DNA from: a virus
Lineage: Duplodnaviria > Caudoviricetes
Strand: one strand, 5' to 3'
Virus record (IMG/VR): IMGVR_UViG_3300032327_001202
Coordinates: 18,828 to 82,827 of that record
DNA length: 64,000 nt
Shown here: positions 1-18,128 of the stretch, one piece after another
Layout of the letters: each line of letters begins with the position of its first letter
Position numbering within the stretch: the stretch's first letter is position 1
Translations under genes and position numbers: made by a program
Notes under the pieces: model-generated
Databases searched by the model: none
The model's input: only the letters and a program-made list of their open reading frames with translations
What the model was told of the DNA's origin: nothing

Positions 1-2
1 GG

Positions 3-818
3 ACATTTATCCATTATAAACTGATATAATTTACCATTATAAGTTAAATACCTATAAAACTGAACACCTTCATTATGATAATAGTTTTCATTTTGCATTA
101 ATATATTTAAAAATAAAGGCTGAGAATTACTTATATCTACTTCATATGTTTCTTCACTATCTAATAAAAGACAGTTTTTTCTAATAAAAGATTTTAATAC
201 AGTAAAATTAGTATGCATTCTACCAAATACATCAAAGTGATAAAATATCTGATTTTGATCAATACAATCAACACTATATTTATTTCTATTATAAATACTA
301 TCATCATTAAATGTATTATCCAAATAAAATATAGATTTAGCATAATCTACTTTAGCACTAAATAAATCTAATACTAATTTTTTCTTTATTTCAGTGGGTA
401 TAACAGTTTCTTTCGCTTTACTAATAAAGTTATTAATATTAAACTTCATGTTATATCTTTTTAAGATAATTTTATCATTATTGACATATCTTAAAATTTT
501 ACCTCTACATACTTTAGTATTAAACTCATAAACTCTACAGTTATGACCTTTTCTATAATTTAGAAGAAGTTTTAATACACCTGTTTCAACTAAGTATTTG
601 ATATAATAGTTATATAAATAACCATATCTTTCTTTTAAAATTTCTGCTGATAAGCTGATTTTATTATTTTTCTTATTAAAGTATTTTGCAATTAAAGAAT
701 GAACTAAATCAATTAGAAAAGCAGACTTTAGTTTTTTATTTTCATAGAAAAAGAAAGTTTCCCGAGAAATTTCTAAAAAATCACTCGGTAAATATTGTAG
801 GATATATTTTTTATACAT
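3..818 (-). CDS. Partial ORF (runs off the window start; missing from the ORF track), >=272 aa; possible PolA/T7-RNAP-superfamily-like protein
   Basis: Manual translation from ATG at 818: MYKKYILQYLPSDF...YHFDVFGRMHTNFTVLKSFIRKNCLLLDSEETYEVDISNSQPLFL..., open to the window edge. D-x-x-G-R-x-H and D-I-S-N-S-Q-P resemble polymerase palm motifs; the function call is tentative. Confidence 0.5.
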   Translation of the reverse strand, partial: MYKKYILQYLPSDFLEISRETFFFYENKKLKSAFLIDLVHSLIAKYFNKKNNKISLSAEILKERYGYLYNYYIKYLVETGVLKLLLNYRKGHNCRVYEFNTKVCRGKILRYVNNDKIILKRYNMKFNINNFISKAKETVIPTEIKKKLVLDLFSAKVDYAKSIFYLDNTFNDDSIYNRNKYSVDCIDQNQIFYHFDVFGRMHTNFTVLKSFIRKNCLLLDSEETYEVDISNSQPLFLNILMQNENYYHNEGVQFYRYLTYNGKLYQFIMDKC

Positions 819-825
819 TATGTAA

Positions 826-2148
826 TTAAATAGTATTTTTTTTACCATTTTCTGGTATATTACCTATATCCTTTTTATTTTTTTTAGTTTTATTTTTGCC
901 TGGGTTTTCTATCTCTGAATAAACATCAGGATAAACATCTCCCGTAAAATCTTTATCATATTGGATATCAAAATATTGACCAAAATCTAAAAGACCTTTT
1001 TTACCTAATTCTACTTCTGTTTTCTTTTTTAAGAAAAAATCTATTCTAGAATTTATTTCATCAATAAACTTATTGAATACATTTAACGTTTGGTTAGTAA
1101 ATATACCTATTACTTTATTTCTTTTCTTATTAAAAGAGCCTAAAATAACTTTAAAAATATATTCTAAACGTTTGTCTTGTTCAATATATTGTTTAGTTAA
1201 TTTATTATTTAATAACTCTGTATTAATTCTAAATTTATCCTTATCAAAGAATTTAGGAACTACAAAATCAAATTTTAATATATCATCCTTAACTTCTGTA
1301 ATATACATATTATATAACTTACTTATAAGATTTATATAAGAATCATCTTTTCTAATTCCCGAAAATTTAACATTGTTCAGATTAACACTTTGACAAAAGT
1401 TTAAGAAATTAACCAATATTAAAGTATATACCTCAACAAATTCTGTTGAGTTTGTTTCACTTATTTTCTTATATAAAGGATTTAATATTTGAAATGATAA
1501 TTGCTCATCATCTGTTTTTATAATCAACTTTTCTAAGTTCTTTTGATAATCACCATCCATTAAAAATGATGATTCTAAATTAGGATTTAATATCTTATAA
1601 AAAAAGAAACAAAATGACTTTTCTCCAAAAACATATTCCAAATCATCTGGACTTGTATTTAAGAAATACTTAATAGCTTCTATCATTTGTTGATTTAAAC
1701 ATCCGCTAAATATAATTGGTAACATATCACAGTCAAATAATCTAGCATACTCCTCTAATTCTTCTATATTAGAAGAATATTTACCATTTTTATTTATTGA
1801 TATAAGAACTAAATCATTTTTAGGGGTTCTACTATACTCTATATTAGCAGGTTGATTGTCAGGAAAATATTCAAAACAAAACCACCAATTTTTATTTAAT
1901 AAACCCTTAACTCTATCACTTAAACCATTAAGATAATTTAGAGCTTTATTGTAAAAATTTTGCATAGCCAAATCAATTATATTAATAGGTTCAGAACTAA
2001 GAGTTTTTAATTTTATATTAAATTCTCCATCATAATTTACCCATATTTGGCTACCTTGAACATCTTCGTATACTATTATATCTTTATTGAATAAATCATT
2101 TAATAATGAATCATCCTCTAAGTTATTTATTGTTATTAATTTTCCCAT
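826..2148 (-). CDS. Hypothetical protein; N-terminus resembles a degenerate RNA-ligase (Rnl2-like) adenylation domain
   Basis: 440-aa ORF; IIVYEDVQGS resembles ligase motif I (EKxDG) with Lys replaced; downstream FEYF and LPIIFSG segments fit motif spacing. Confidence 0.35.
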   Translation of the reverse strand: MGKLITINNLEDDSLLNDLFNKDIIVYEDVQGSQIWVNYDGEFNIKLKTLSSEPINIIDLAMQNFYNKALNYLNGLSDRVKGLLNKNWWFCFEYFPDNQPANIEYSRTPKNDLVLISINKNGKYSSNIEELEEYARLFDCDMLPIIFSGCLNQQMIEAIKYFLNTSPDDLEYVFGEKSFCFFFYKILNPNLESSFLMDGDYQKNLEKLIIKTDDEQLSFQILNPLYKKISETNSTEFVEVYTLILVNFLNFCQSVNLNNVKFSGIRKDDSYINLISKLYNMYITEVKDDILKFDFVVPKFFDKDKFRINTELLNNKLTKQYIEQDKRLEYIFKVILGSFNKKRNKVIGIFTNQTLNVFNKFIDEINSRIDFFLKKKTEVELGKKGLLDFGQYFDIQYDKDFTGDVYPDVYSEIENPGKNKTKKNKKDIGNIPENGKKNTI

Positions 2149-2242
2149 AATTAATATATATTATTTATATAATATAGTTTTTAAAAATTTTTTTTTGTTG
2201 AAAAATTTTTATATATTTGTATAAATAAAACAAAAAACAAAA

Positions 2243-3511
2243 ATGATAATCGAAAAAAATTTAGTGGAAATAATCCAAAATATTGATAGTCCTTTAAGTA
2301 AAACTTTTCTAAAATTAGAAAAGTTAAATCTTACTTCTATAGTACAACTATCAAATAAAGATTGGCATTTCCAAGTAGTAAACGGTAAGAAAAAAGAAAC
2401 CGTAAAAATGTTTAAATTTATCAATACTTATTTCCCAAATAAGTTTGAAAAAGATGAAGTTATTAGTTTTTGTGAAAAAATTATAACTAATTCTAAACCT
2501 AAACAAGTTACTACTAAAATAGAACCAAGACCATTTAAATATGAGCCTCTTAATGTAAGAGATACATTTATTTCATTAGTTACTGAAACTTATCCTCATG
2601 GATTTGAAGATGAAGTTTTAGCTTATCTTCCACAAGATCTAGAAATAGATGATTTTGGTAATTACTATAAAGTAATTGGTGATTCTGAAACAGTTTTTAC
2701 GAGTCATTTAGATACTGCTTTAAGAGAAAAATCTGATATTAATTTATATTCATTCTTTGTTAAAGAACAAGAGTTTATTAAAACAGATGAAACAACTATA
2801 TTAGGAGCTGATGATAAAGCCGGTGTTACTATCATGTTATATATGATGGCTAATAATGTTCCTGGTTTATACTATTTCTTCTTAGGTGAAGAAAGAGGGG
2901 GTATTGGATCTAAAAAGGTTGCTAATGATTTTATAGACAATCCACTTTTAAAAGGTAAAAAAAGAATGGTATCTTTTGATAGAAAGAATTATTATTCTAT
3001 CATAACATCACAATTAGGAGAAGCTTGTTGCTCAAATGAGTTTGCAGATGGATTATGTAATGAATTAAATAAAAATGGTTTGCATATGAAACCTGATGAT
3101 ACAGGTATCTTTACAGACTCTGCTAATTTTGTGGATTATATTCCTGAATGTACTAATATTTCTATTGGATATTTCAACGAGCACACTCATAAAGAGATTC
3201 AAAATATTTCTTATTTAGAAATATTGGCTAAGTGTTTAGTTGATGTAGATTGGGAAAACTTACCAACTGTTAGAAAGGCAGGTATTAGTGAACAATCTAT
3301 AATTAAACATGGTGACAAAATTAAGAAGTTAAGAAAGTTAGGTATTAAAAATACGCTTCATATTAAGGAGTTAAAGGGTAATTTATATACTATCTTAGAG
3401 GTAGATAATAAAAATCCTATGGGAATATATGAAGATTTATCTCTTTTAAGAGAAACTTTAGGAAGTATAGATTTAAGATTTTACAATTCAAATATTTTAA
3501 TAAAATTATAA
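2243..3511 (+). CDS. M28/M20-family zinc peptidase
   Basis: Metal-ligand motifs FTSHLDT, GADDKAG, GEERG, TDSA, GYFNEHT. Confidence 0.85.
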   Translation: MIIEKNLVEIIQNIDSPLSKTFLKLEKLNLTSIVQLSNKDWHFQVVNGKKKETVKMFKFINTYFPNKFEKDEVISFCEKIITNSKPKQVTTKIEPRPFKYEPLNVRDTFISLVTETYPHGFEDEVLAYLPQDLEIDDFGNYYKVIGDSETVFTSHLDTALREKSDINLYSFFVKEQEFIKTDETTILGADDKAGVTIMLYMMANNVPGLYYFFLGEERGGIGSKKVANDFIDNPLLKGKKRMVSFDRKNYYSIITSQLGEACCSNEFADGLCNELNKNGLHMKPDDTGIFTDSANFVDYIPECTNISIGYFNEHTHKEIQNISYLEILAKCLVDVDWENLPTVRKAGISEQSIIKHGDKIKKLRKLGIKNTLHIKELKGNLYTILEVDNKNPMGIYEDLSLLRETLGSIDLRFYNSNILIKL

Positions 3512-3768
3512 TGCAAGAGACAGTAGATAAAATGGTAGATTACTTAAATGAAAATTTTTCAGAGGAGTTCTACGTAGATTTTGAAGAAGATGAAAAAAAT
3601 AAAGTAGTCTTTATTCAGTTTTTGATGGATAAAGTTATTAGCATTGATAATGCTATAGATTTTTTTAGCAGAATCAATGATAGTAAAACTTTGTGTAAAA
3701 AACAAGAGTTTGAGTTATGGAAAACAAAGGAAGAAGAACCTATTATTCAAATAAGTTATATTATGTAA
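3511..3768 (+). CDS. Hypothetical protein
   Basis: 85-aa ORF translationally coupled to the peptidase (TAATG overlap). Confidence 0.7.
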   Translation: MQETVDKMVDYLNENFSEEFYVDFEEDEKNKVVFIQFLMDKVISIDNAIDFFSRINDSKTLCKKQEFELWKTKEEEPIIQISYIM

Positions 3769-3770
3769 TT

Positions 3771-3986
3771 ATGAGTACAATTAATGTAAAAATACAAACA
3801 AATAGAATTATTGGCGGTCTTAGAGATTGTATTAAATTATTTTTACAAGAAACTAAAGAAAAAGTATTAACTTTAGAAGTTTTAAAAAAATATAATTTTG
3901 AAGAAAAAGATTTATATGATATGAATCTAACTAAATCAAAAATAAGAGATTTTAAAATTAATAAAATATTAAAATTATGCCAGTAG
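3771..3986 (+). CDS. Small protein, RDxxI-motif family member 1
   Basis: Likely start ATG 3771 (just after the stop at 3768); C-terminus KKYNFEEKDLYDMNLTKSKIRDFKINKIL shared with the four downstream ORFs. Confidence 0.75.
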   Translation: MSTINVKIQTNRIIGGLRDCIKLFLQETKEKVLTLEVLKKYNFEEKDLYDMNLTKSKIRDFKINKILKLCQ

Positions 3987-4216
3987 TTTCATTAGATTTC
4001 GCAAGTTTATATCCTAGACCAATGGGTGATTTTTCTATGGGAGATGATTTTGATAAATCTACTAAGTATATATTAGATAGAAATAAAGATCATGATTATG
4101 TAGATCTTTTATTACTTGAAAAGTATGGGTTGGTAACAAGTAGTTTATTTGATTTTCCTTTTGTTCAAACAAAGGTAAGAGATTATGAGATAAATAAAAT
4201 ATTAGATAGTATATGA
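3977..4216 (+). CDS. Small protein: PolB motif A-like peptide (VVSLDFASLYP) plus RDxxI C-terminal domain
   Basis: N-terminus MPVVSLDFASLYP matches family-B polymerase DxxSLYP; C-terminus KVRDYEINKIL. Confidence 0.8.
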   Translation: MPVVSLDFASLYPRPMGDFSMGDDFDKSTKYILDRNKDHDYVDLLLLEKYGLVTSSLFDFPFVQTKVRDYEINKILDSI

Positions 4217-4467
4217 GTGATATAATCAGACAAGAACTTAAAAAAGTAATAAATAGTTTTTATGGAAGAAATCCCGATATAGAAACTGATTTTACTAAAT
4301 CTATAAAGTTTTTATTATCTAAATTGGATGTTAAGTTTTTAACATACGAGTTTGTAGAAAAGATAAAAGATAAATATGATATAGTATATACGGATTTGTC
4401 TGATTTTTCATTAGTTCAGATAAAGGTAAGGGATTATGAAATAAATAAAATCTTTAAAAGTATCTAA
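4213..4467 (+). CDS. Small protein: PolB motif B-like peptide (KKVINSFYG) plus RDxxI C-terminal domain
   Basis: QELKKVINSFYG matches family-B KxxxNSxYG; C-terminus KVRDYEINKIF. Confidence 0.75.
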   Translation: MSDIIRQELKKVINSFYGRNPDIETDFTKSIKFLLSKLDVKFLTYEFVEKIKDKYDIVYTDLSDFSLVQIKVRDYEINKIFKSI

Positions 4468-4497
4468 ACAAAAAAAATTATTTTTTTATCACTTTAT

Positions 4498-4791
4498 ATG
4501 AAAAGTAAAAGTGATTTAAAGATAAAATATGGTGATAACATCATAGACGAAATAGAAAATAAATTAGCAAAAGAAATATCTGATAGTATAAACAAGGATA
4601 TACTTAATAGTTTTAAGAAACCAAGTAAAATTTATCTACTTTCTTTAGTTGAAAATATTAATAATAAAGAAGGTGAGTTATTTATACTAATGGAAAAATA
4701 TGGTATTATAGAAAATGATTTATATAGCCTTGAAATTGTTAAATCAAAAATAAGAGAATATAATATAGATTTAATCTTAAAAAATAATTAA
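4498..4791 (+). CDS. Small protein: major-capsid-like helix plus RExxI C-terminal domain
   Basis: SDLKIKYGDNIIDEIENKLAKEISDSINKDIL aligns ungapped to this window's MCP segment EDIKANTGMDIVQKMESILVNELSQTISKQII; C-terminus KIREYNIDLIL. Confidence 0.75.
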   Translation: MKSKSDLKIKYGDNIIDEIENKLAKEISDSINKDILNSFKKPSKIYLLSLVENINNKEGELFILMEKYGIIENDLYSLEIVKSKIREYNIDLILKNN

Positions 4792-4807
4792 CTTTTTCAA
4801 AAATTTT

Positions 4808-5107
4808 TTGTATATTTGTATGGAAGAAAAAAATATAAATTATAAATCTTATATAGAGGAACAAATAAGTAAAAGTATTTCTTATTCTGATTATATATGT
4901 GATGAGTTAGATAAAACTATAGATTATGCTGATTACTTAAGTGATAAACTTGAAAGTGAAGTATTTTTAGTAAAATTACACACTGATATGAATTTATCAG
5001 ATATAATAGAAATGTATGATTTATCAGAAAAAGATCTTCATAAATTGAGTATAGTTAAGTTAAAAGTAAGAGATTATAAAATAAATTTATTACTAAAACA
5101 AGATTAA
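4808..5107 (+). CDS. Small protein: two scaffold-like 14-aa repeats plus RDxxI C-terminal domain
   Basis: KSISYSDYICDELDKTIDYADYLSDKLE vs protease/scaffold KSIKYSEYVAENLDKNIAYAEYIAENLD (14/28 identical by hand); C-terminus KVRDYKINLLL. Confidence 0.8.
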   Translation: MYICMEEKNINYKSYIEEQISKSISYSDYICDELDKTIDYADYLSDKLESEVFLVKLHTDMNLSDIIEMYDLSEKDLHKLSIVKLKVRDYKINLLLKQD

Positions 5108-5136
5108 AAAATATAATATATACATTACAAATACAT

Positions 5137-5495
5137 GGGGATGAAATGATTTAGATTCATGGAATTAATGGTAGAGATGCAAACATCGGATAATCCTAAC
5201 CCGATTAATAAATTGGATTAAAGTCTAAACGACAAAACAAATACAGTAGCAAGCCGTGAAGAATTAGTAGCCGCTCTACAAAACAACATCTTAAAGGTAA
5301 ACGAAGTAGCTTTTGCTTAATTGACAAAAACAAAAAGGTTTCCAAATAGTTAAAAATCTATTCAAAAATTTTCGGATTTGTTAGGGGTTCGTTAAAAACT
5401 AAATTAGTTTGTTATTTTATAAAAAAGTAACTACGTTTGTAAATGAGTTTCTATGATTAACCAGAGAAGACCCGAATTCGCCTTCGGCATCTCCA
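5137..5495 (+). ncRNA. ssrA: tmRNA (transfer-messenger RNA)
   Basis: 5' GGGGATG pairs with 3' CATCTCC(A), giving a 7-bp acceptor stem with the G3:U70 alanine determinant; T-arm GAC-CCGAA-TTCGCC-TTCGG; internal tag ORF 5225/5228-5320 ending ...VAFA*; terminator immediately downstream; CCA not encoded (CTA). Confidence 0.92.
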
Positions 5496-5500
5496 CTAAT

Positions 5501-5526
5501 AAATACCCCTTGATTGGGGTATTTTT
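5501..5526 (+). terminator. Rho-independent terminator after tmRNA
   Basis: AAATACCCC-TTGATT-GGGGTATTT followed by T-run. Confidence 0.8.
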
Positions 5527-5538
5527 AATTAAAATAAT

Positions 5539-5958
5539 ATGAATGATGATAACTTTGATAAATACCTAAAAATTAGTAATTTATCTTTAATAATTAAAAA
5601 AATAGGAGATAGAATAGATTTTATTGATAAAAATAAAATCTATGAAAATATAGATGGGTGTATTCGAGAATCTAATATAGATTTTATATTAGAACAACAA
5701 AAAGATTTTTATTTTCTTGATATAGAATACTTCAGAGGAAGAAACCCATTAAATAATAATTATTATCCTATAAATTATAAATTAATAGAAAGTGATATGA
5801 TTAAAATAAAAAAATTTAATCAATTATCAAAATCTAAAATAATTATTGTAGGAAACATTACTATACAAAAATTATATTATTCCGCAGACTTTATTGTAGA
5901 ATATATTGATTCTAAACCAAAAATTATTAAAAATAGATATTTTCCAATTTATGATTAA
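5539..5958 (+). CDS. Hypothetical protein with internal RExxI motif
   Basis: 139-aa ORF containing IRESNIDFILE; C-terminal SADFIVEY...KIIKNRY weakly recalls the DnaB/gp41 helicase C-terminus. Confidence 0.65.
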   Translation: MNDDNFDKYLKISNLSLIIKKIGDRIDFIDKNKIYENIDGCIRESNIDFILEQQKDFYFLDIEYFRGRNPLNNNYYPINYKLIESDMIKIKKFNQLSKSKIIIVGNITIQKLYYSADFIVEYIDSKPKIIKNRYFPIYD

Positions 5959-6277
5959 AGTAAGTTTAACCGCAAAAGAACAAATAATTAAATTAAAAAG
6001 TGAAGAACCTAATACAGGACAATACCTTAGAGTAGGGGTAAAGGGTGGAGGATGTAGTGGATTATCATACATCTTAGAATTTGATGATATATATGATAAA
6101 AAAATTGATGAACTTTTTGAAGATAATGATATAAAAATTATATGTGATAAAAGAAGTCTTCTTTATATATTTGGAACCGAACTAGTATTTTCAGGTGGTT
6201 TAAATGGTAAAGGATTCGAGTTTATCAATCCCAATGCAAGTAGAACTTGCTCTTGTGGAGAAAGTTTTTCAGTTTAA
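5951..6277 (+). CDS. iscA: HesB/IscA-family Fe-S cluster assembly accessory protein
   Basis: LRVGVKGGGCSGLSY and C-terminal CSCGESF; likely start MIKVS at 5951 rather than 5906. Confidence 0.95.
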   Translation: MIKVSLTAKEQIIKLKSEEPNTGQYLRVGVKGGGCSGLSYILEFDDIYDKKIDELFEDNDIKIICDKRSLLYIFGTELVFSGGLNGKGFEFINPNASRTCSCGESFSV

Positions 6278-6289
6278 AAAAATAATAAT

Positions 6290-6466
6290 ATGAACAAAGA
6301 TAAAATAGATTTATATAATTTTTTAGTAGATAACCCTTACTTTTCTAAGGAATATGTTATGGGAAAGATATTTAATTTTTCTTTTTCTGATATACAATAT
6401 ATCAATAATTTAGAACTAATGGAAAAAAGAAATAAAAAAATAGATGATTTATTAAATGAAGATTAG
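6290..6466 (+). CDS. 58-aa ORF (not in track): portal C-terminal-like peptide plus RNKKIDDLL
   Basis: Manual translation MNKDKIDLYNFLVDNPYFSKEYVMGKIFNFSFSDIQYINNLELMEKRNKKIDDLLNED*; PYFSKEYVMGKIFNFSFSDI aligns with portal PYFHVDFLVDKIMKLTPEEI. Confidence 0.75.
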   Translation: MNKDKIDLYNFLVDNPYFSKEYVMGKIFNFSFSDIQYINNLELMEKRNKKIDDLLNED

Positions 6467-6617
6467 TATTGATGAAATAATAACTTATGATATAGTAGCA
6501 TCTCCAGCACTTGGAAGTGCTAAACTAGTATATGATGAAGAGCTTAAACGAAAGAAAATATTAGAGGATATGGAGAGGAGAAATAAGATTTTAGATGAGT
6601 TATTAAAAGAGGATTAA
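6456..6617 (+). CDS. 53-aa ORF (not in track): prohead-protease-like peptide plus RNKILDELL
   Basis: Manual translation MKISIDEIITYDIVASPALGSAKLVYDEELKRKKILEDMERRNKILDELLKED*; TYDIVASPALGSA vs protease TYDIVADPGFASA (9/13 identical). Confidence 0.8.
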   Translation: MKISIDEIITYDIVASPALGSAKLVYDEELKRKKILEDMERRNKILDELLKED

Positions 6618-6638
6618 ATTAATTTAATCCTCTTTTTT
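6605..6638. terminator. Perfect 32-bp palindrome / bidirectional terminator
   Basis: AAAAGAGGATTAAATT-AATTTAATCCTCTTTT between convergent ORFs. Confidence 0.75.
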
Positions 6639-6641
6639 ATT

Positions 6642-6947
6642 TTAATATTCTTTTAAATCTGAGATTTCTAAATCATCTAATACAGATATTGCTTTATCTA
6701 ATCCACTTTTCCAATTAGGCCATTTTCTTCTATGCATTTCAACTGCTTCTTCTAAATCATGATATAAATCATCATTTCCAACTAAGTTATAATATTTATT
6801 TTTAAGTTTAGAAACTAATTGATATAAAACAGCATTATCAGTTTCATTTTTTAAGGCTTCAATTTCGGCTTTAAGTTCAGGAATAAACTCTTTTTTTAAT
6901 TGCCAATTACCTTCAAATAAATGAAGATATTTTAATTTTTTTTCCAT
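6642..6947 (-). CDS. Hypothetical protein with CTS-like leader
   Basis: 101-aa ORF starting MEKKLKYLHLFEG. Confidence 0.7.
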   Translation of the reverse strand: MEKKLKYLHLFEGNWQLKKEFIPELKAEIEALKNETDNAVLYQLVSKLKNKYYNLVGNDDLYHDLEEAVEMHRRKWPNWKSGLDKAISVLDDLEISDLKEY

Positions 6948-6949
6948 GT

Positions 6950-7618
6950 TTATTTTAATTTTTTATCAAGGATTTTAACTAATCCTTCCCCTATTGTAAA
7001 ATGTATATTTTTTAATACATCGCTTTTTATATTTAAAAAATCTTCTAAAAAAGTAAAGTTAAAATCATATTCATATTCTTCATCTATTTTTACTTTTTTA
7101 ATACTAAGTTTTAGTTCATAAGAATCATTTACACTAATAACAAAATCAAATTGTAAATCTTCACATTTTGTAATCTTAAACTTAGGCTCGTATATAACAT
7201 CAAATATAGTATAATCAGTTCTATTAACTGTTTTAAGATAATGATTTAAAAGTAATGCTGGTGTTTCAACAAAATCTGATAATAATTGTAAATCTTTTCC
7301 AAAATTATTTGATTTTATAATCTTCTTTAATTTATATTCTAATTCATTTATATCTTTAAACAATTCTTTATGATAAACACAATTTATATTATATAAGTAA
7401 GTAAAATAATTTTCTGTTATTTCAGTTTTTTCTAAATTTGTTTTAAATATAAATTTAGTATGTAAAACAAATGTTTCTTCTATTAATAAACTATGAATAG
7501 ATATAACTAAATTATAATAATCATCATGTTTTTCATATACATTTTTATATGTTAAAAAACGTCCTTCTGTAAAAACGGATTTAAATAGTTCCTCTATTTC
7601 AGATATTTTAATTGCCAT
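6950..7618 (-). CDS. Hypothetical protein
   Basis: 222-aa ORF co-oriented and closely spaced with neighbours. Confidence 0.75.
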   Translation of the reverse strand: MAIKISEIEELFKSVFTEGRFLTYKNVYEKHDDYYNLVISIHSLLIEETFVLHTKFIFKTNLEKTEITENYFTYLYNINCVYHKELFKDINELEYKLKKIIKSNNFGKDLQLLSDFVETPALLLNHYLKTVNRTDYTIFDVIYEPKFKITKCEDLQFDFVISVNDSYELKLSIKKVKIDEEYEYDFNFTFLEDFLNIKSDVLKNIHFTIGEGLVKILDKKLK

Positions 7619-7619
7619 A

Positions 7620-8372
7620 TTATTTAAATTGTTTATCGTAAGTTTTCTTTCTTAGATTAATAAGTTTTTCTATATATTTATTTCTTCTCAATAACTTAAA
7701 TACTAAGTTTTCTAATGAATACTCACCATCTTTTTCTATACCAGATTTTCTACCATCTTTAATTTTTTTCCAAATTTTCTTCCATTTAAACTGAAAATTT
7801 TCATAATTAGCCACATTACCTGATTCTATTTCTAAATCATCTATACTATCCATTATATCTTCTGCTTTAAGTTTAATTAAATGATAATCAATTTCAAAAT
7901 TCTTTCTATCTGGTTTTTGTACCCAATAGTTATATAGTATAGAATATACTCCACTATTTTTTCTTATCTTTTCTATGTCTGTTTGGCAGTTAAGTTCTAA
8001 TTCATATCCTGCTATTATTATATCATGATCTTCATTCCATAATTTAGAATATGTTTTAAGATAATTTTGAACTAAATTTTCATCGTCATTAATTTCTGTA
8101 AAATCTAAAACTATATGTAAATCTATATCTGACCATTCTGACCAATTATAATTGGCTAATGAACCTGTGAATATAATATCTTTAACCTTAAAATCTATTT
8201 TTAAATCATCTTTTATTTCATCAATAAAATCATTCCCTATTTGGAGTAATTCTTCTTTTACTTCATGATTTAATTTAAATTTATGCCATATTTTCGTATT
8301 TAAATAATCTTTTAACTTAAATGATTTTAATGGAGTTAAATCCTTTTTATGGTCATTATATTTTTTTATCAT
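7620..8372 (-). CDS. Pol-beta-superfamily nucleotidyltransferase
   Basis: FTGSLANYNWSEWSDIDLHIV = GS...DxD motif; likely start MIKKYN at 8372 (track start 8468 overlaps the divergent gene). Confidence 0.8.
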   Translation of the reverse strand: MIKKYNDHKKDLTPLKSFKLKDYLNTKIWHKFKLNHEVKEELLQIGNDFIDEIKDDLKIDFKVKDIIFTGSLANYNWSEWSDIDLHIVLDFTEINDDENLVQNYLKTYSKLWNEDHDIIIAGYELELNCQTDIEKIRKNSGVYSILYNYWVQKPDRKNFEIDYHLIKLKAEDIMDSIDDLEIESGNVANYENFQFKWKKIWKKIKDGRKSGIEKDGEYSLENLVFKLLRRNKYIEKLINLRKKTYDKQFK

Positions 8373-8424
8373 AACTAAAACTTTTTTGTGTATAAGTATA
8401 TATATTAAAAAATAATACCTAATT

Positions 8425-8949
8425 ATGTTAGATGAAAAATTTCCCGATAGAAAAGAAATTAAATACACTTATCAGAAAAGTTTAATTGAATCTATTAAAT
8501 CTATAGATCTTACCGACTATGATTATAATAAAGCAAATGATGAAGAATTTGCACCGAGAACTAAGATAACTCAAAAACAAAAAATTTATTTTTGGATTAG
8601 ACTTTATTTAAATGAAGAAATAGAGATTGAACCAAATGATATAGTTAATATAGTTTATACTCCATTAAATGAAGTATTAGAAACTACTTTTGTTTGCTAT
8701 TCAAAACCTTATTCATCAAAAGTTGATGTTGATAATTTAACTGAATATAATCCTGAAGATGATAAAAAAGTTTTATGTTTAATGGTAGATCAATCACGTA
8801 TAAATGAAAATTCGGATGATATACCTTTTATCAGATCTTTATTTAAAATAAGTAAATATTATGAAGATAGAGTTATGAGAAAAGGAGAATTAAAATTCAT
8901 TCTTGAGAAAAATGATACAGAATTAGAATATTTTAGTATTGGATTTTAA
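8425..8949 (+). CDS. Hypothetical protein
   Basis: 174-aa ORF followed by a bidirectional terminator. Confidence 0.7.
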   Translation: MLDEKFPDRKEIKYTYQKSLIESIKSIDLTDYDYNKANDEEFAPRTKITQKQKIYFWIRLYLNEEIEIEPNDIVNIVYTPLNEVLETTFVCYSKPYSSKVDVDNLTEYNPEDDKKVLCLMVDQSRINENSDDIPFIRSLFKISKYYEDRVMRKGELKFILEKNDTELEYFSIGF

Positions 8950-8951
8950 TT

Positions 8952-8984
8952 AAAAAAGAGGACTTATTTAGTCCTCTTTTTTTT
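8952..8984. terminator. Bidirectional terminator
   Basis: AAAAAAGAGGACT-TATTT-AGTCCTCTTTTTT between convergent genes. Confidence 0.75.
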
Positions 8985-9461
8985 ACCTCTTTTATTTATT
9001 GGAGGTGTATAATTTGTTGATGTGGATTGGGTAGATGGCGTAGTGTAAGCATAATCAAAATAAAATAAATTAGGGCTGGAACCTGTTTTATATAATTCAT
9101 GTTCTTCTTCTTTAAATTCCTCAAATTCTTTGTTTTCTAAAATAGAATCTAATTTTCTATCACGATTAATGGTAGCAACTTCTCGTTTAATTCTTTCTTT
9201 TTCCTCCTCTGAATTACCAAAACCTTTCATAGGGTTAACAGTAACTAAATCTATCCCTATTGTTTGAGCGGCTATTTTTTTAGCAATTGGTAATAAACTT
9301 GGAAAAGATTCATTTGACTGTGTCCCTACTAATGTAGTATCCATATTTATTTCATTTTTTAAATGAAGATTAGCATATTCGGTCATCCAGTTATTTACTA
9401 CAGATTGTGTAGATGATACATGATTCAAATCCCATTTATCTATTTTTATATTTGGTTTCAT
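8964..9461 (-). CDS. Truncated paralog of the major capsid N-terminal region with an inserted RDRKLDSIL helix
   Basis: WMTEYANLH vs MCP WMAEYAEYH; LLPIAKKIAAQTIGIDLVTVNP vs LLPVAMKIAAQTIGLDLVAVKP (17/22); LFYFDYAY vs LVYVDFQY after the insert. Confidence 0.85.
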   Translation of the reverse strand: MKPNIKIDKWDLNHVSSTQSVVNNWMTEYANLHLKNEINMDTTLVGTQSNESFPSLLPIAKKIAAQTIGIDLVTVNPMKGFGNSEEEKERIKREVATINRDRKLDSILENKEFEEFKEEEHELYKTGSSPNLFYFDYAYTTPSTQSTSTNYTPPINKRGKKKRTK

Positions 9462-9464
9462 ATT

Positions 9465-10568
9465 TTATATTATTTTTTCTTCTAAAATTATTTCTATATT
9501 TTGTTCATAAGAAATTTTTAATAATTCTTTTTTATTTTCCAAAACCCAATTATCTTTTAATTGGTCATTTCTTTTTACAACCTCAAATTGCTCTTCACCA
9601 CCAAAAAATTCTCTTGGCTCATAATGTTGAATACCATTAAACTCTATAAATAACCCCTTTTTAGGTAAATAAAAATCAAATCTATATGTAGAATTACCTA
9701 TTTTTTGTTTATATTCTTTAATGTATTCTATACCTTTTATATCTAACCAATTCTTTATTTGACGTTCTCCTTTTGATGAAGAACAATTAGGACAACCACA
9801 TTTATGATGTATAATATAATTAGGTTTAGCACTCCAAATATAATCACATACTTTACATTTATGTTTTAAATAAAAAAGAGACCCTATATATTTTTCACCA
9901 TCTACTAATTCTATATCATTTGGAAGAAGAGATAAATATTTTGTATGAGAAAATTTTCTACCAGAACAAGATGAACACCCTAATACTATATTAGCTATAT
10001 TTTTAGGCGTAGTGTTAAATTTCTCACCACATTTTAAACATTCAAAATCATGATTTTCTCTAAAATTAGTGTAATTTCCTATTAATTTTATATTCCTTTC
10101 TATTAATAATTCATTAAATTTATTAATATAGTTATATGATTTTTTGCTTAATAAATTTTTATCCTTTTTACATTCACAAATATATTTTGTGATTTGTTTA
10201 GGTGTTTTATTTATTATTTCATTACATATTTTACATTCAAAATTTATATACGTATTAGTGTTAATATAATTATCTACTCTAATAAAATCTAAATCTTTTA
10301 TTCTTAAATCAAATTCTTCATTTGTTATTTTTCTACCTAATGAAGAAAAACTATCGTTTGTTTCTTTTTTACATTCACATAATGTTCGATTATATAATTT
10401 AGGCTTTTTCATACTTTTTTTACCACATAACTTACATTCAAATTCTATTGGTGTTTCTGCATTAATATAATTACCGATTCTTATATAATCAGAATCTTTA
10501 ATTTTTAAATCAAAATCATTATTAGTAAATGCTTTTGGTCCTGACTTTTCGTTCTTTTTTATATACAT
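9465..10568 (-). mobile_element. Free-standing homing-endonuclease-like gene (CxxC repeats plus C-terminal PD-(D/E)xK/Vsr-like domain)
   Basis: Repeated FECKxC units, GCPNCSSSKGE, RFDFYLP..FIEFNGIQH; directly downstream of the capsid gene. Confidence 0.8.
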
Positions 10569-10667: not shown

Positions 10668-12410
10668 TTAGTTAAGGTAGCCATTAGCATCATTAACGTA
10701 GATAGTCATAAATTGTTTTTGTGGGAAGAAACCTAATTCAGCCACAGCATATCTTGATCTTAAAATCATTCTTGGAGCAAATGTTGCTTCTGACATGATT
10801 GAGATAGATTGTGCCATGAGGAATGGCACGAAACAGATACCTGGTTGATCAGGATTGTTTTTACGTCCGATTAAGATTCTGTTGTCATTGTATTTCATGT
10901 AAGGATCTACGTAGATAGTGATATCACCGATTTGACCTACAGGGTACATTTGACCGTTTGTGTTTAATTTAGATTTAAGTGGGTTAATTGTGTAACCTGC
11001 AACATCCATTAAAGCTGCTGCTAATCCACCATTTGTTACCGCATATTGTGCTGGTCCAACACGTCCTTCAGTTGCGATGTAGTTAGAAGCATGTACCATT
11101 TTAGTGATAAGCTTTCTTTGTACAGCGTGTGTAGTTTCACCACCTGGTCCTGCTTGAACATAAAGAGTATCTAAGTCAAATATAGTTTGTCCAGAGATGT
11201 TAGCGTTAGCATTTAAACCTGTGTATAAAGGAGCAGTTTGTCTGTTTATATTACCCATATCAAATACTTTAGCAATAATTTGCTTAGAGATAGTTTGAGA
11301 AAGTTCGTTTACAAGGATTGATTCCATTTTTTGAACGATATCCATACCAGTGTTAGCTTTGATATCTTCAATTTCTGTTCTACGTAATGCAGAACTTACT
11401 TCTACTGTACCAACTGTAATTGATTTAGAAGAAATTTTTGGTCCAATTGCACCTGCATATGTGCTTTCTTCTTCTTGACGAGCCATTGGGTATTGCCCAC
11501 CATTACCATTAAAGTTTGTAACATATCCTGGTAATTGATCTTCAAGAGCAGATACTAAGCTTATGCTTATAGCATTTGAGTTAGTAGACTGTCCAAATAA
11601 GTAGTTAATTTCTGAAACCATTGAACCACCTGCTGTAGCACCTGTAGTTGAAACGTTAAATGAGTTGTTTGCTTGATTTAAGCCATAAACAACACCACCA
11701 CCATATGCACCACCTGCCGCATTTGATTCTTTGTAAGCTCTGAATATAGGCTGTCCATCAATACGAGAGAAACCTAAGAACTCTAAGTAACCAAATTTGT
11801 TAGTTGGTTCAGTTGTAGTACTAGATACTGAAGTTGATGCAGTGAAACCTGTCCAAATTCTTGTACCAAATGCTAAACCACCTTGGTTTTGTTGAATACC
11901 TGCAGTAGTTAAAGCGCTATTAATAGCTGTATTTAATGAAGCACTTAAACCTGTAGAAGTTAAAGTAGCATTCCAAGCAATTTTGAATACTTGAGGTTTT
12001 GTGTTAAAGTTTGAAAGATTTAAATCGTCATATTGAAAATCAACATAAACTAAATCAATCTTTGGACCTGGAGTTGGCTTTACAGCTACTAAATCAAGAC
12101 CAATTGTTTGTGCAGCAATTTTCATAGCTACTGGTAATAGGTTTTGTCCTAAATCACCTGAACCTATGTTTGATGAACCATAGTTTGCACCAATTGTTGT
12201 ACCTGGGTAAGTACCAACTTGTGGAGCTAAAACAGCACCTAAACCACCTGTAGAAGCATTAAGGTAAGCGTTTTCGTTTATTGCATGGTATTCAGCATAT
12301 TCTGCCATCCATGAATATTTTTCTCTGTCCTCTTTGTTAACACCAATGTTTTCTAAAATTGGAGTCCATTTGTTAAGAGCTTTTTGTAAGTCAATTCTAA
12401 CTTGTGACAT
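10668..12410 (-). CDS. gp23: Major capsid protein (T4 gp23-like)
   Basis: KWTPILE N-terminus, EDIKANTGMDI..E..L..E helix, IYVDPY, F.P.M.L.SRYAV C-terminal motif; adjacent to protease and portal. Confidence 0.9.
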   Translation of the reverse strand: MSQVRIDLQKALNKWTPILENIGVNKEDREKYSWMAEYAEYHAINENAYLNASTGGLGAVLAPQVGTYPGTTIGANYGSSNIGSGDLGQNLLPVAMKIAAQTIGLDLVAVKPTPGPKIDLVYVDFQYDDLNLSNFNTKPQVFKIAWNATLTSTGLSASLNTAINSALTTAGIQQNQGGLAFGTRIWTGFTASTSVSSTTTEPTNKFGYLEFLGFSRIDGQPIFRAYKESNAAGGAYGGGVVYGLNQANNSFNVSTTGATAGGSMVSEINYLFGQSTNSNAISISLVSALEDQLPGYVTNFNGNGGQYPMARQEEESTYAGAIGPKISSKSITVGTVEVSSALRRTEIEDIKANTGMDIVQKMESILVNELSQTISKQIIAKVFDMGNINRQTAPLYTGLNANANISGQTIFDLDTLYVQAGPGGETTHAVQRKLITKMVHASNYIATEGRVGPAQYAVTNGGLAAALMDVAGYTINPLKSKLNTNGQMYPVGQIGDITIYVDPYMKYNDNRILIGRKNNPDQPGICFVPFLMAQSISIMSEATFAPRMILRSRYAVAELGFFPQKQFMTIYVNDANGYLN

Positions 12411-12490: not shown

Positions 12491-14695
12491 TTAAATGTTT
12501 TTGAATCTTTCTAAGATTGATTTGAAATCTGAATCAGATAGTTTATCTTCTTGTATTAAACTGTCATGAGAAATCATTTTTTTAGTTGATTCATTCTTTT
12601 TTAAGTTTCTAGTTAACCAAAAATGTTCAATTTTAGCTTCTGAATCCAATTCAGGATATAGTTTAGCTTGTGAAAGAATTGATTTTTTAGAACTTTCATT
12701 TGTTACTTCCCAAATTGATTTTATATTTTCTGGCATCAATCTGATTAGTCTTTCTTCTAATGATTCATTTTTAATAGAAAGTGCTTCTTGTATTAATTTT
12801 ATAACTTCTGAACTTGTGAAATAACTCTTTTCGTTTATGTAAAGTTTTACTTGTTCTTGCTCTTCGTTTGTTAAGCTATAATAGCTATCAACTTGAGACT
12901 TGTTTAAAAATTTTAAGAAATGTAGATCGTTTGTTTCAGAAACTTTACGTTTTCTAGCTTCTTCGATTAATAAATCTATTTTTTTACTTAAATCTGAATC
13001 TGTATTTTTATTTTCTAAGTAGTCTTCGTCTGCTTTAGATACATCTGGTAAACCTTCTAATTTTACTTCTTTACCTAATAATTCATCTTTGAAATCTGCT
13101 TCATTTGGAACCGCAGTATCAACTTTTTGTTCTTCTGGTAATTCAACTTCTGTTAATTCAGTATAATCTAAAGAAACTGGAGTTGCTTCATCAGCTTCAC
13201 CCGCTTTTTCAACACCATCTTCACCATGAAGTTCATCCTCACCACCTTCTAAATAGTTATCTGATTTATTATCAACATCATTTTCACCAAAACCATATTC
13301 TTCTAAAGTAGGAATAAGATTTGATTCATTACTTTCAAATAATTTAGTACCATTAACTTTTTCAGAAATTAAACCTGTATAAGATACAGCTTTATCTAAG
13401 TTTTCAGCAATGTATTGAGAATAAGAAATGTTATCATCAAGGTGTTCTGCTATATATTCAGAATATTTAATATTACCTTCTAAGTTTTCAGCGATATACT
13501 CAGAATAAGCAATATTACCATCTAAGTTTTCAGCTAAATATTCAGCATAAGAAATATTTCTATCTAAGTTTTCAGCTAAGTATTCTGCATAAGAAATATT
13601 CTTATCAACATTCTCAGCAATATATTCAGAATAAGAAATGTTTTTGTCTAAATTTTCAGCGATGTATTCAGAGTAAGAAATGTTTCTATCTAAATTTTCA
13701 GCGATGTATTCAGAATAAGAAATGTTCTTATCTAAGTTTTCAGCAATATATTCTGCATAAGCGATATTTTTATCTAAGTTTTCAGCAACATATTCAGAAT
13801 ATTTAATTGATTTGTTTAAGTTTTCAACTAAATAATCGTTATGTTCGATTAATCTATCAGTTGTATCTTTAAGAGATTTGTTCTCAGAAACAACAACTTG
13901 AATTTTTTCTGCTAAATAATCTAAGTATTTAACAACTTGAGAATTAGTTTTATTTAATTCTTCATAGTAGTTTAAAAGTTTTTCTAATTTAACTGGTTCT
14001 AAATTACCAGATTTAAGAGCACTTTTAACTTCTTTTTTAGTTGCAGCAATTTCATTAACTATATATTTCGAATAGTCTGACAATTGATCTTTCGTTACGA
14101 ATTCATTTTTGTTCATGTTAAATAATTCATTTATTTTTGATTCATTTGATACTTCATATATTCTGAAGTTAGCATCATTTGAATAATTTAAAGACTCATT
14201 TATAGAAGACATTCTCGCAGAAGCAAATCCCGGATCTGCAACTATATCATAAGTAAATAATTTTTTTAGTGATACTGTACCATCAGCTTCTGTAATACCA
14301 GCAGCTCTTGAAGATACAAATATAGGGCAACCATCATCAACTAAAGCCTTAGCTTCTTTTCCCCAATAGGTATTTAATAATTTAATTTGTCCTTCAACTA
14401 CATTTTTTTCTTTAACATAATATGCGGTTTTGATTAAATGGGATGCACGGGATAGTGAAGTGTCAAAGACGTCGGGGTGGTCAAACTCACCATAAACTAC
14501 TCCCATAGTAGAAATCCTGCTATTAAGTTCTTCTAAACAAGGCAAGAATCTTTCAGGAGTATATACTCTTTCATTCCTATTTTTAACCATAAACTCAGTA
14601 AAAGTACCTCCTAAAAGATAATCTTTTCTAGCATCTACACCTTCGTTCATTTTTAAAGGATTTGTATTATTTTCAATGATTAATACTGGCTTCAT
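12491..14695 (-). CDS. gp21: Prohead protease (gp21-like) fused to a scaffold-like region
   Basis: NRNERVY, YGEFDHP, VSSRAAG, TYDIVADPG protease motifs in the N-terminal ~170 aa; coiled-coil, repeat and acidic C-terminal region. Confidence 0.9.
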   Translation of the reverse strand: MKPVLIIENNTNPLKMNEGVDARKDYLLGGTFTEFMVKNRNERVYTPERFLPCLEELNSRISTMGVVYGEFDHPDVFDTSLSRASHLIKTAYYVKEKNVVEGQIKLLNTYWGKEAKALVDDGCPIFVSSRAAGITEADGTVSLKKLFTYDIVADPGFASARMSSINESLNYSNDANFRIYEVSNESKINELFNMNKNEFVTKDQLSDYSKYIVNEIAATKKEVKSALKSGNLEPVKLEKLLNYYEELNKTNSQVVKYLDYLAEKIQVVVSENKSLKDTTDRLIEHNDYLVENLNKSIKYSEYVAENLDKNIAYAEYIAENLDKNISYSEYIAENLDRNISYSEYIAENLDKNISYSEYIAENVDKNISYAEYLAENLDRNISYAEYLAENLDGNIAYSEYIAENLEGNIKYSEYIAEHLDDNISYSQYIAENLDKAVSYTGLISEKVNGTKLFESNESNLIPTLEEYGFGENDVDNKSDNYLEGGEDELHGEDGVEKAGEADEATPVSLDYTELTEVELPEEQKVDTAVPNEADFKDELLGKEVKLEGLPDVSKADEDYLENKNTDSDLSKKIDLLIEEARKRKVSETNDLHFLKFLNKSQVDSYYSLTNEEQEQVKLYINEKSYFTSSEVIKLIQEALSIKNESLEERLIRLMPENIKSIWEVTNESSKKSILSQAKLYPELDSEAKIEHFWLTRNLKKNESTKKMISHDSLIQEDKLSDSDFKSILERFKNI
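13390..13850 (-). repeat. Coding tandem repeat, about 10-11 copies of 42 bp (14 aa: NISYSEYIAENLDK)
   Basis: Directly visible in the translation and DNA of the protease/scaffold gene. Confidence 0.95.
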
Positions 14696-16394: not shown

Positions 16395-18128
16395 TTAAAA
16401 TTCAAACTCACCACCGCCAGCTTCACCACCAGCTTCAGGTGCAGGAGGATTTTCACCACCAGCTTCAGGTTCCGAAGCAGCTTCACCACCTTCAGGAGGA
16501 GTTTCACCACCCGCTTCAGGAACAGGAGCTTCAGGAGAAGGTCCTGCTTCTCCACCACCGCCTCCACCTTCTGGCATTCCACCTCCAGCAGCAGTTGATG
16601 ATCCAACCCCTTTTGATTTAATCCAATAAGCCTTATTTTCTTCAATTTCTTCGGGAGTTAATTTCATAATTTTATCAACAAGGAAATCAACATGGAAATA
16701 AGGTTGTTCACCATTCATAATTCCTAATAAAGTAGTCATTATGGTAGCTCTAGATTCCATATTTGCTAATTTTTTCCATTCTTCAAAAATCTGATTTGTA
16801 TTGAAAATAACATCAACTTGGTTAAGAAATACTTCATCATGTCTTAATTCAGGAAATTCCATACACATTTGAAGTTTAATTGGTTTAACAATTAGTTCTT
16901 TAATAATTGAACGTAAACGGCTAATAAAATTACCAAAGGTTATTTCATCTCTTGTCATTTCATTTGCAGCAGTCACTAACTGACCCCCACCATTTTCTTT
17001 TTCAAATCTTTGGAAAGGTATCTTACTTGCTCTTTTCAAACAATTCATAAACCAATTTAACATATTATCTTCATTAAGATTATGTCCTTGTGGAGAAATC
17101 AATTCCATATTTGGTGTACCTTGATCACCTTCTGGAAACCATATTTGTTTATTATATGGTAAGTGTTTACTACCACTAATAGTTAATGTACCTAATGAAT
17201 CATCAAATTCTACATCTTCAGAATAATCAGCTATTAATTGTGCAATTTGTTCCTCAGCTCTTTGTTTTGGTAAACCTTTAATAGGTATTGTAAACTTTTG
17301 ATAAACCATCGCATTAACTACGTTAAACATAATTCTTGTTTGTTCCATAATCTTTAATTGATTATATGGTTTAATAAGTCCTTCTACATAAGAAGTTTCG
17401 GAATAATCATGTTGAGTAGAATATGATATAAATACTATTTGCGAATCTAAGAAAATTCTTCTTAAAGCAGGATCTTCTGGATATTGTATCCAAATATTTC
17501 CTATACTTGGTTCATAAGCTGGAACAAGAGTTTCAGGTCTCATTCTATTAAAACTAATAATATTCTTTTTTGTATCATCCCATATAATTTCAACTGCGGC
17601 ATAACCATCAATTAAAAAATCTTTAGTCATATTCCAAGCAGTAATACCATCAGAAAAACCAAAACGACTGTATATTTTTTCAAAAAATTCTTGATATTTA
17701 TCTCGTATATCTTGTGAATAACTATTATTTAAAGGACTTGGAGAACAGAAATCTTTATCTTCATCATACACAATAATTTCATCGGCTAACACAGATACAA
17801 ATTCACGTATTTCATCCTTAATAGAATATTCTCTTAATATTCTTCTTTTATCTGAATACGCTTTATCTAAATAAGGAATTGATTTTTTGTTTAAAACTTG
17901 AGCGACTGCTCTTTGAGAAAAGAAAGCATACATAGAATCCGCTCTTTGAGCAAGAGGGTCTTCATTCATACCGACACCGATAGAATTTCTAAGTATCATA
18001 TCTTCATATTTTAGACCTAACCCTGAAAGGGATCTAAGAAGACGATTAAATATACCTTTATTTTCAACAGCAGAAGGTATAATATTTGGGTTTGTATTGC
18101 TATTTATTGGATTATATGATCCTGGCAT
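16395..18128 (-). CDS. gp20: Portal protein (T4 gp20-like) with Gly/Pro/Glu-rich C-terminal tail
   Basis: 577 aa in the head module; KRASKIPFQR, EMTRDEITFGNFISRLR motifs typical of gp20. Confidence 0.9.
   Translation of the reverse strand: MPGSYNPINSNTNPNIIPSAVENKGIFNRLLRSLSGLGLKYEDMILRNSIGVGMNEDPLAQRADSMYAFFSQRAVAQVLNKKSIPYLDKAYSDKRRILREYSIKDEIREFVSVLADEIIVYDEDKDFCSPSPLNNSYSQDIRDKYQEFFEKIYSRFGFSDGITAWNMTKDFLIDGYAAVEIIWDDTKKNIISFNRMRPETLVPAYEPSIGNIWIQYPEDPALRRIFLDSQIVFISYSTQHDYSETSYVEGLIKPYNQLKIMEQTRIMFNVVNAMVYQKFTIPIKGLPKQRAEEQIAQLIADYSEDVEFDDSLGTLTISGSKHLPYNKQIWFPEGDQGTPNMELISPQGHNLNEDNMLNWFMNCLKRASKIPFQRFEKENGGGQLVTAANEMTRDEITFGNFISRLRSIIKELIVKPIKLQMCMEFPELRHDEVFLNQVDVIFNTNQIFEEWKKLANMESRATIMTTLLGIMNGEQPYFHVDFLVDKIMKLTPEEIEENKAYWIKSKGVGSSTAAGGGMPEGGGGGGEAGPSPEAPVPEAGGETPPEGGEAASEPEAGGENPPAPEAGGEAGGGEFEF

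Follow-up and report, generated by a model that had tools for sequence, protein, structure and literature searches.

Why should a phage encode two adjacent mini-proteins, one opening with motif A and the other with motif B of family-B DNA polymerase (PolB)? The question is raised by a locus in what we call the window, the whole stretch of DNA analysed (64,000 nt at 24% G+C, positions 18,828-82,827 of the IMG/VR record IMGVR_UViG_3300032327_001202, with a source contig of 82.8 kb). The phage is huge and uncultured and has T4-like head genes, namely those for capsid (10668-12410), protease-scaffold (12491-14695) and portal (16395-18128), and its closest relatives in GenBank are uncultured phages of 630-735 kb (LR756502 and others) with a capsid identity of 50-62%. 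The two genes, m2 and m3, belong to an array of five tandem paralogues (m1-m5, 3771-5107), all on the plus strand, which is placed 5.6 kb away from the capsid, scaffold and portal genes in a cluster that begins at 2243 and closes with a terminator-like hairpin (6605-6636). Each paralogue joins a variable N-terminal peptide of 13-45 residues to a C-terminal part of about 55 residues that is constant.

The protein of m2 (3977-4216, plus strand, 79 residues) bears the motif A sequence D-F-A-S-L-Y-P at residues 7-13 (nt 3995-4015), an arginine next to it (4016-4018) and the constant helical domain from about nt 4046 onwards. That of m3 (4213-4467, plus strand, 84 residues) starts with a helix that includes the motif B pattern K-x3-N-S-x-Y-G at residues 10-18 (nt 4240-4266), and the constant domain follows. 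Both open reading frames are intact and overlap by ATGA, and both motifs lie within the first 13-18 residues. The preliminary description of this DNA had recognised adjacent mini-proteins with PolB motifs A and B, each fused to a constant domain and neither able to be a polymerase, and the present analysis bears it out on all these points: the reading frames are as described, the patterns are above chance, and outside the motif each protein is homologous to its paralogues. Assignment to family-B polymerases (PF00136/PF03104) is rejected, as there is one motif per protein, motif C is absent and no Pfam profile matches, with PF00136 leaving m2 and m3 unscored at E≤1. The gene with motif A does precede that with motif B, in the polymerase order that had been pointed out, although the order of two items carries no weight.

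Resemblance by chance, or descent from a decayed or frameshifted PolB, is largely refuted and retains hardly any probability. Among the 364,000 residues of open reading frames from the contig and from a related, complete 464-kb genome (G001), D..SLYP has no occurrence apart from m2 and the two PolB N-halves, K...N[SG].YG none apart from m3, and the occurrences expected by chance for the N-termini of the family are about 1e-4 (motif A) and 4e-4 (motif B); a match to PolB no better than chance, named at the outset as a reason to abandon the idea, is not what these numbers describe. When the m2 peptide was compared by unbiased blastp-short with all G001 reading frames and the window, PolB motif A was its top match, at a score reached by 1 of 100 shuffles. 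The m3 peptide gave no match in the same search, in which the motif B of G001 is broken by a coding gap and located in a reading frame below the size cut-off; the support for motif B consists in the five-residue pattern and in the fact that diverged orthologues keep it, some as N-G-x-Y-G like the clade's own polymerases. The missing PF00136 score of m2 and m3 would suit a chance likeness, and so would the alignment of S-x-Y-x-R in identical columns of the two proteins, whereby part of each motif could be shared ancestry. Decay is contradicted by the six-frame check that had been proposed for a collinear polymerase: tblastn with the phage's own PolB N-half and the relatives' C-halves, and likewise a profile HMM of the N-half, recovered from the six frames of 3300-5300 just the local match at motif A. 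An intact PolB N-half is moreover present elsewhere on the contig. A remnant of an intein or homing element was considered as well and dismissed, with no Hint/intein or endonuclease family found in Pfam and with the helical domain of the family following each motif.

The siblings of m2 and m3 place the two motifs in a wider pattern. The first family member, m1 (3771-3986, plus strand, 71 residues from the ATG at 3771), aligns with the others and has an N-terminal peptide for which the same unbiased search against G001 and the window gave no significant match. The peptide of m4 (4498-4791, plus strand, 97 residues) resembles the conserved helix of gp23-type capsid proteins (Pfam Gp23 at E 0.003, which is sub-threshold and the sole Pfam family match in m1-m5; PHROG major head protein at E 0.0026), and m5 (4820-5107, plus strand, 95 residues) contains three copies of the 14-residue repeat of the scaffold (blastp E 6e-14 against the phage's own protease-scaffold). 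Further along the plus strand, two mini-ORFs of related design have tails different from the constant domain of m1-m5: m6 (6290-6466) is similar to the C-terminal segment of the portal (PHROG portal at E 0.01, weak blastp match to the own portal) and m7 (6456-6617) has an N-terminal peptide similar to a prohead-protease motif (blastp E 4.5e-5 against the own protease; score of the N-terminal peptide reached by 1 of 100 shuffles). An extra member found in relatives shares its first seven residues with the start of the gp19-like tail-tube protein of G001.

The constant part is predicted to form a compact, confidently folded helical domain of about 55 residues. In the AlphaFold (AF2) model of m2 the pLDDT exceeds 90 for residues 22-79 and drops to about 58 for residues 1-20, the peptide being modelled as flexible; in that of m3 the domain reaches about 90 and a helix is placed at residues 3-17 (pLDDT 75-81), so that the motif B peptide has in the prediction the helical form that it takes in PolB. 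With a profile of the constant domain, 78 cluster representatives were retrieved from 1.84 billion proteins, nearly all of 54-140 residues and with the domain at the C-terminus; at the N-terminus they vary, and motif A, the capsid helix, scaffold repeats, the tail-tube N-terminus and collagen-like repeats occur among them. When extended fusions of the domain were looked for, only m5-type proteins of 113-121 residues came up. Neither Pfam nor PHROGs gave a family for the domain, typical distant members included, and tblastn against GenBank phages gave no relative of m2, though capsid genes 61% identical are present there. Structural comparison of the m2 model returned no meaningful match from the PDB with Foldseek (best E 3) or from 48,161 chains with VIA-align (best Z 4.3); in the ESM Atlas the TM-score stayed below 0.5, and a feature search was without usable match. 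At the least, the family defines an unnamed protein domain widespread in metagenomes.

Evolution of m2 is fast outside the copied motif. Between relatives the dN/dS of m2 amounts to 0.36-1.09, as compared to 0.08-0.13 for a neighbouring gene of 422 codons, and in two more distant relatives with syntenic arrays (L125, L126) identity is 83-88% for the neighbouring protein but no higher than 47-48% for m2. Within codons 2-14 of m2 only codon 2 changes, though up to 4 of the 9.4 synonymous sites do, and D7, F8, L11 and Y12 are invariant even in the orthologues of L125 and L126. As judged from these codons, the copied motif of m2 is kept by selection. For m3 the dN/dS is 0.46, and the N-terminal peptide is no more conserved than the rest of the protein; the gene is absent from L003, L122, L123, L125 and L126 and, missing as it is from several close relatives, must be dispensable. 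Further along these lines, m1 is deleted in L002-L005. The arrays of L002, L003 and L005 have decayed differently, with the m1 deletion leaving its last codons fused to the upstream reading frame, m5 split by a frameshift and the tail-tube mimic shortened, and in L003 m3 and the tail-tube mimic are lost together.

What the two motifs could imitate depends on the polymerase of the phage itself. The preliminary description had placed the polymerase gene outside the window, which is correct; however, the gene is split, and its N-half is on the same contig (G000:C1:11397-12953, minus strand), about 10 kb upstream of the array, which changes what m2 and m3 could mimic. This N-half, missed by the PF00136 profile search of the contig, was found by BLAST against G001, to whose counterpart it is 69% identical. 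It ends after the first finger helix and is directly followed by a reading frame with NUMOD1 and NUMOD3 domains, a homing endonuclease. In the relatives G001, G003 and G004, from which rather than from the phage's own lineage the C-half and the real motif B were read, the C-half is up to 130 kb off, stands beside an HNH-like reading frame (by sequence inspection) and opens with the second finger helix, the carrier of motif B. The polymerase is thus split at the finger tip in the own genome as well as in relatives. The own motif A reads DFSSLYPR, with a minority arginine present in 2 of 22 relatives; the arginine is shared by 9 of the 11 aligned m2 sequences, and one m2 orthologue is DFSSLYPR, identical in all eight residues. 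Codons of m2 and of the own motif A differ at nearly every synonymous site, and the likeness is consequently old and kept at the level of protein, not a recent copy of DNA. The same differences remove the readings at the DNA level (recombination arm, homing-site decoy, RNA decoy), for which a repeat search yielded only paralogy of 64-72%.

Since selection preserves the copied motif, m2 and m3 are probably molecular baits. Mimicry is the simplest reading: folded mini-proteins would carry at their free N-terminus copies of those segments that vary least in proteins of the phage itself. Imitation of the polymerase before a host sensor or an interacting partner had been suggested from the outset, and it is consistent with the selection on the motif, with the copying of PolB at the protein level and with siblings that copy core proteins; the binding, its partner and its effect are what we infer. 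In the mechanism that we propose, the exposed peptide copies the most conserved segment of one essential protein of the phage and docks on the surface that the copied segment would normally contact, whereby the constant domain is brought there. As is known for family-B polymerases from RB69 gp43 structures, the strand bearing motif A pairs with the hairpin bearing motif C, and the helix bearing motif B packs on the finger helix before it. In the split enzyme, the first of these contacts would join the motif A strand in the N-half to the motif C hairpin in the C-half, and the second would join the motif B helix at the start of the C-half to the finger helix at the end of the N-half. The split at the finger tip makes the contacts of motifs A and B the contacts between the halves, and for that reason binding of m2 to the C-half and of m3 to the N-half is favoured, the two proteins either keeping the place as chaperones or inhibiting assembly of the polymerase. 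To this specific docking, with its binding, partner and effect all inferred, we assign a probability of roughly one in three. It fits that siblings copy elements of self-association or assembly, such as the scaffold repeats, the tail-tube N-terminus and, in distant members, the collagen-like repeats. A peptide as short as thirteen residues may not suffice for binding to a polymerase half. Docking also leaves fast evolution and frequent loss unexplained, both of which fit a decoy for a host sensor, and the combination of high dN/dS with presence/absence variation suits a gene in an arms race no less well than a housekeeping factor for assembly.

Decoys directed at host defence are accordingly a possible reading, albeit one to which we give less than even credence by a wide measure: the peptides would imitate segments that are seen by a bacterial sensor or protease, and the constant domain would trap or block that factor. 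Being taken from the parts of core proteins that vary least, the copied segments make good immune targets, and the fast evolution with gain and loss between strains is in line with such a function, which has also been proposed for ankyrin reading frames of Bodo saltans virus (PMC5871332). Yet in a folded polymerase motif A lies hidden within the active site; scaffold and collagen-like repeats, being motifs of self-association, are unlikely epitopes for a sensor; and no defence-related family was matched in the Pfam and PHROG searches. That the N-terminal fragments are by-products of recombination, caught by chance during the copying of cassettes in a genome rich in homing endonucleases, with the constant domain alone of importance, appears improbable. 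Homing-endonuclease genes do fracture the polymerase and helicase genes of the contig, and members of the array are deleted, shortened or frameshifted in relatives; but across deep divergence no part of m2 is better conserved than the residues of motif A, even as synonymous sites change, and the same kinds of fragment recur in distant members of the family. Slightly more improbable still are proteins of the prohead core, in which the constant domain would target the scaffold core in the manner of the T4 capsid-targeting sequence and the peptides would be payloads, packaged or released. The array lies 5.6 kb from the head genes, T4 has small and dispensable core proteins (PMC9958956), m5 has its scaffold repeats, and the constant domain shows a weak, collinear likeness to scaffold residues 456-474. 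That likeness, however, is not significant (E 0.016-0.04 among 77 scaffold sequences), no protease site is conserved between peptide and domain, and polymerase motifs have no obvious role in the head.

Returning to mimicry by docking, a broader version of it is that huge phages encode a library of "address-label" mini-proteins, in which one helical effector domain is steered by copies of interface motifs of 13-45 residues and the split PolB is one target among others; this we consider speculative and rather unlikely. If it were true, m2 and m3 would be the first natural regulators or chaperones that imitate the catalytic motifs of a polymerase. If the peptides do dock on the partners of the copied segments, short motif mimicry would be a general and modular way of addressing phage machines, or the host sensors that watch them; ready-made peptide ligands would be at hand for capsid, scaffold, portal and tail-tube proteins as well as for the halves of the polymerase, and the widespread splitting of phage polymerases by selfish nucleases would be tied to a class of accessory proteins.

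The closest precedent is found in Bodo saltans virus, in which ankyrin reading frames begin with pieces of DNA polymerase and MutS and were proposed to be decoys (Deeg et al. 2018, eLife, PMC5871332). Essential-gene fragments at the head of a constant module, read as mimics or decoys by proposal, are common to both systems, and the present genes show the same arrangement, a tandem array of a repeated module to whose N-terminus fragments of essential proteins are fused. The difference is that between a eukaryotic giant virus with a known ankyrin fold and a phage with an unnamed helical domain of 55 residues, headed by fragments of 13-45 residues that derive also from structural proteins. MicroProteins and dominant-negative fragments (Id proteins, LITTLE ZIPPER) keep the interaction element of a larger protein and engage its partner. 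They are alike in being small proteins with just such an element and unlike in being eukaryotic regulators that keep a whole dimerisation domain, whereas here a short motif is set on an unrelated domain. The locus for internal proteins (IP) of T4 is polymorphic. T4 IPI-III, Alt and gp67/gp68 are comparable in that they are small, partly dispensable and encoded near the head genes, and combine a short constant module with variable parts (PMC9958956). Their tag, unlike the domain described here, is an N-terminal peptide of 10 residues cut by gp21, and their variable parts are not copies of other phage proteins. Assignment to T4-type capsid-targeted proteins was rejected, these having an N-terminal peptide with an (L/I)-x-E site and the present proteins a shared part that is C-terminal; the glutamate before K-Y-G is not conserved among m2 orthologues. 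Fractured genes have been described (PMC2677866), and split family-B polymerases, together with T4 gene 60/mobA, are related to the present case by a parent PolB split beside homing-endonuclease genes. In contrast to such pieces, m2 and m3 are separate genes on another domain, and they are not needed for a complete polymerase, given that m3 is often absent. We found no published description of a phage family with this domain, the published analogue being from the eukaryotic giant virus.

Several observations were made on the surroundings of these genes. In the relatives with a known C-half (L093, G001:C1:363500-369500; L094, G003; L095, G004), motif B is interrupted as K-L-V-L-N-G-S-Y | G-A-F by a stop codon and, immediately after it, a G+C-rich hairpin, over a gap of about 36-48 nt that shifts the frame in G001 and is flanked by the serine codons TCT and TCA in G004. 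An HNH-like reading frame, recognised by eye, stands just upstream on the other strand, and the arrangement looks like a bypass cassette of the T4 gene 60/mobA type. One locus of the phage's own contig (L124, G000:C1:10350-12953 and 7427-10334) comprises the PolB N-half with its NUMOD1/NUMOD3 reading frame and a helicase gene; the latter is halved by a reading frame of 294 codons with a TnsA-like endonuclease domain, and a further gene at 4750-6645 of that contig is also in two pieces.

Positions 1-8949 of the window are inverted relative to G001:C1:234482-244358, a block that has the PolB N-half on one side and the capsid gene on the other. The array is missing from the syntenic position in G001; unrelated genes stand where the window has the array, a tmRNA-like region and an IscA-like gene (5906-6277). 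The tmRNA-like region (5137-5498, plus strand) follows the array directly and probably represents a divergent phage tmRNA: it gave a full-length but sub-threshold Rfam match (22 bits, as compared to a gathering score of 47; E 4.7e-7 in local search), and ARAGORN called no tmRNA at these positions. Finally, a reading frame of 165 codons at 8964-9461 (minus strand) is a paralogue of the N-terminal region of the capsid protein (E 1e-9 against residues 33-115) into which an acidic helix module with the motif N-R-D-R-K-L-D-S-I-L is inserted, and several reading frames like it adjoin the polymerase C-half in G004.
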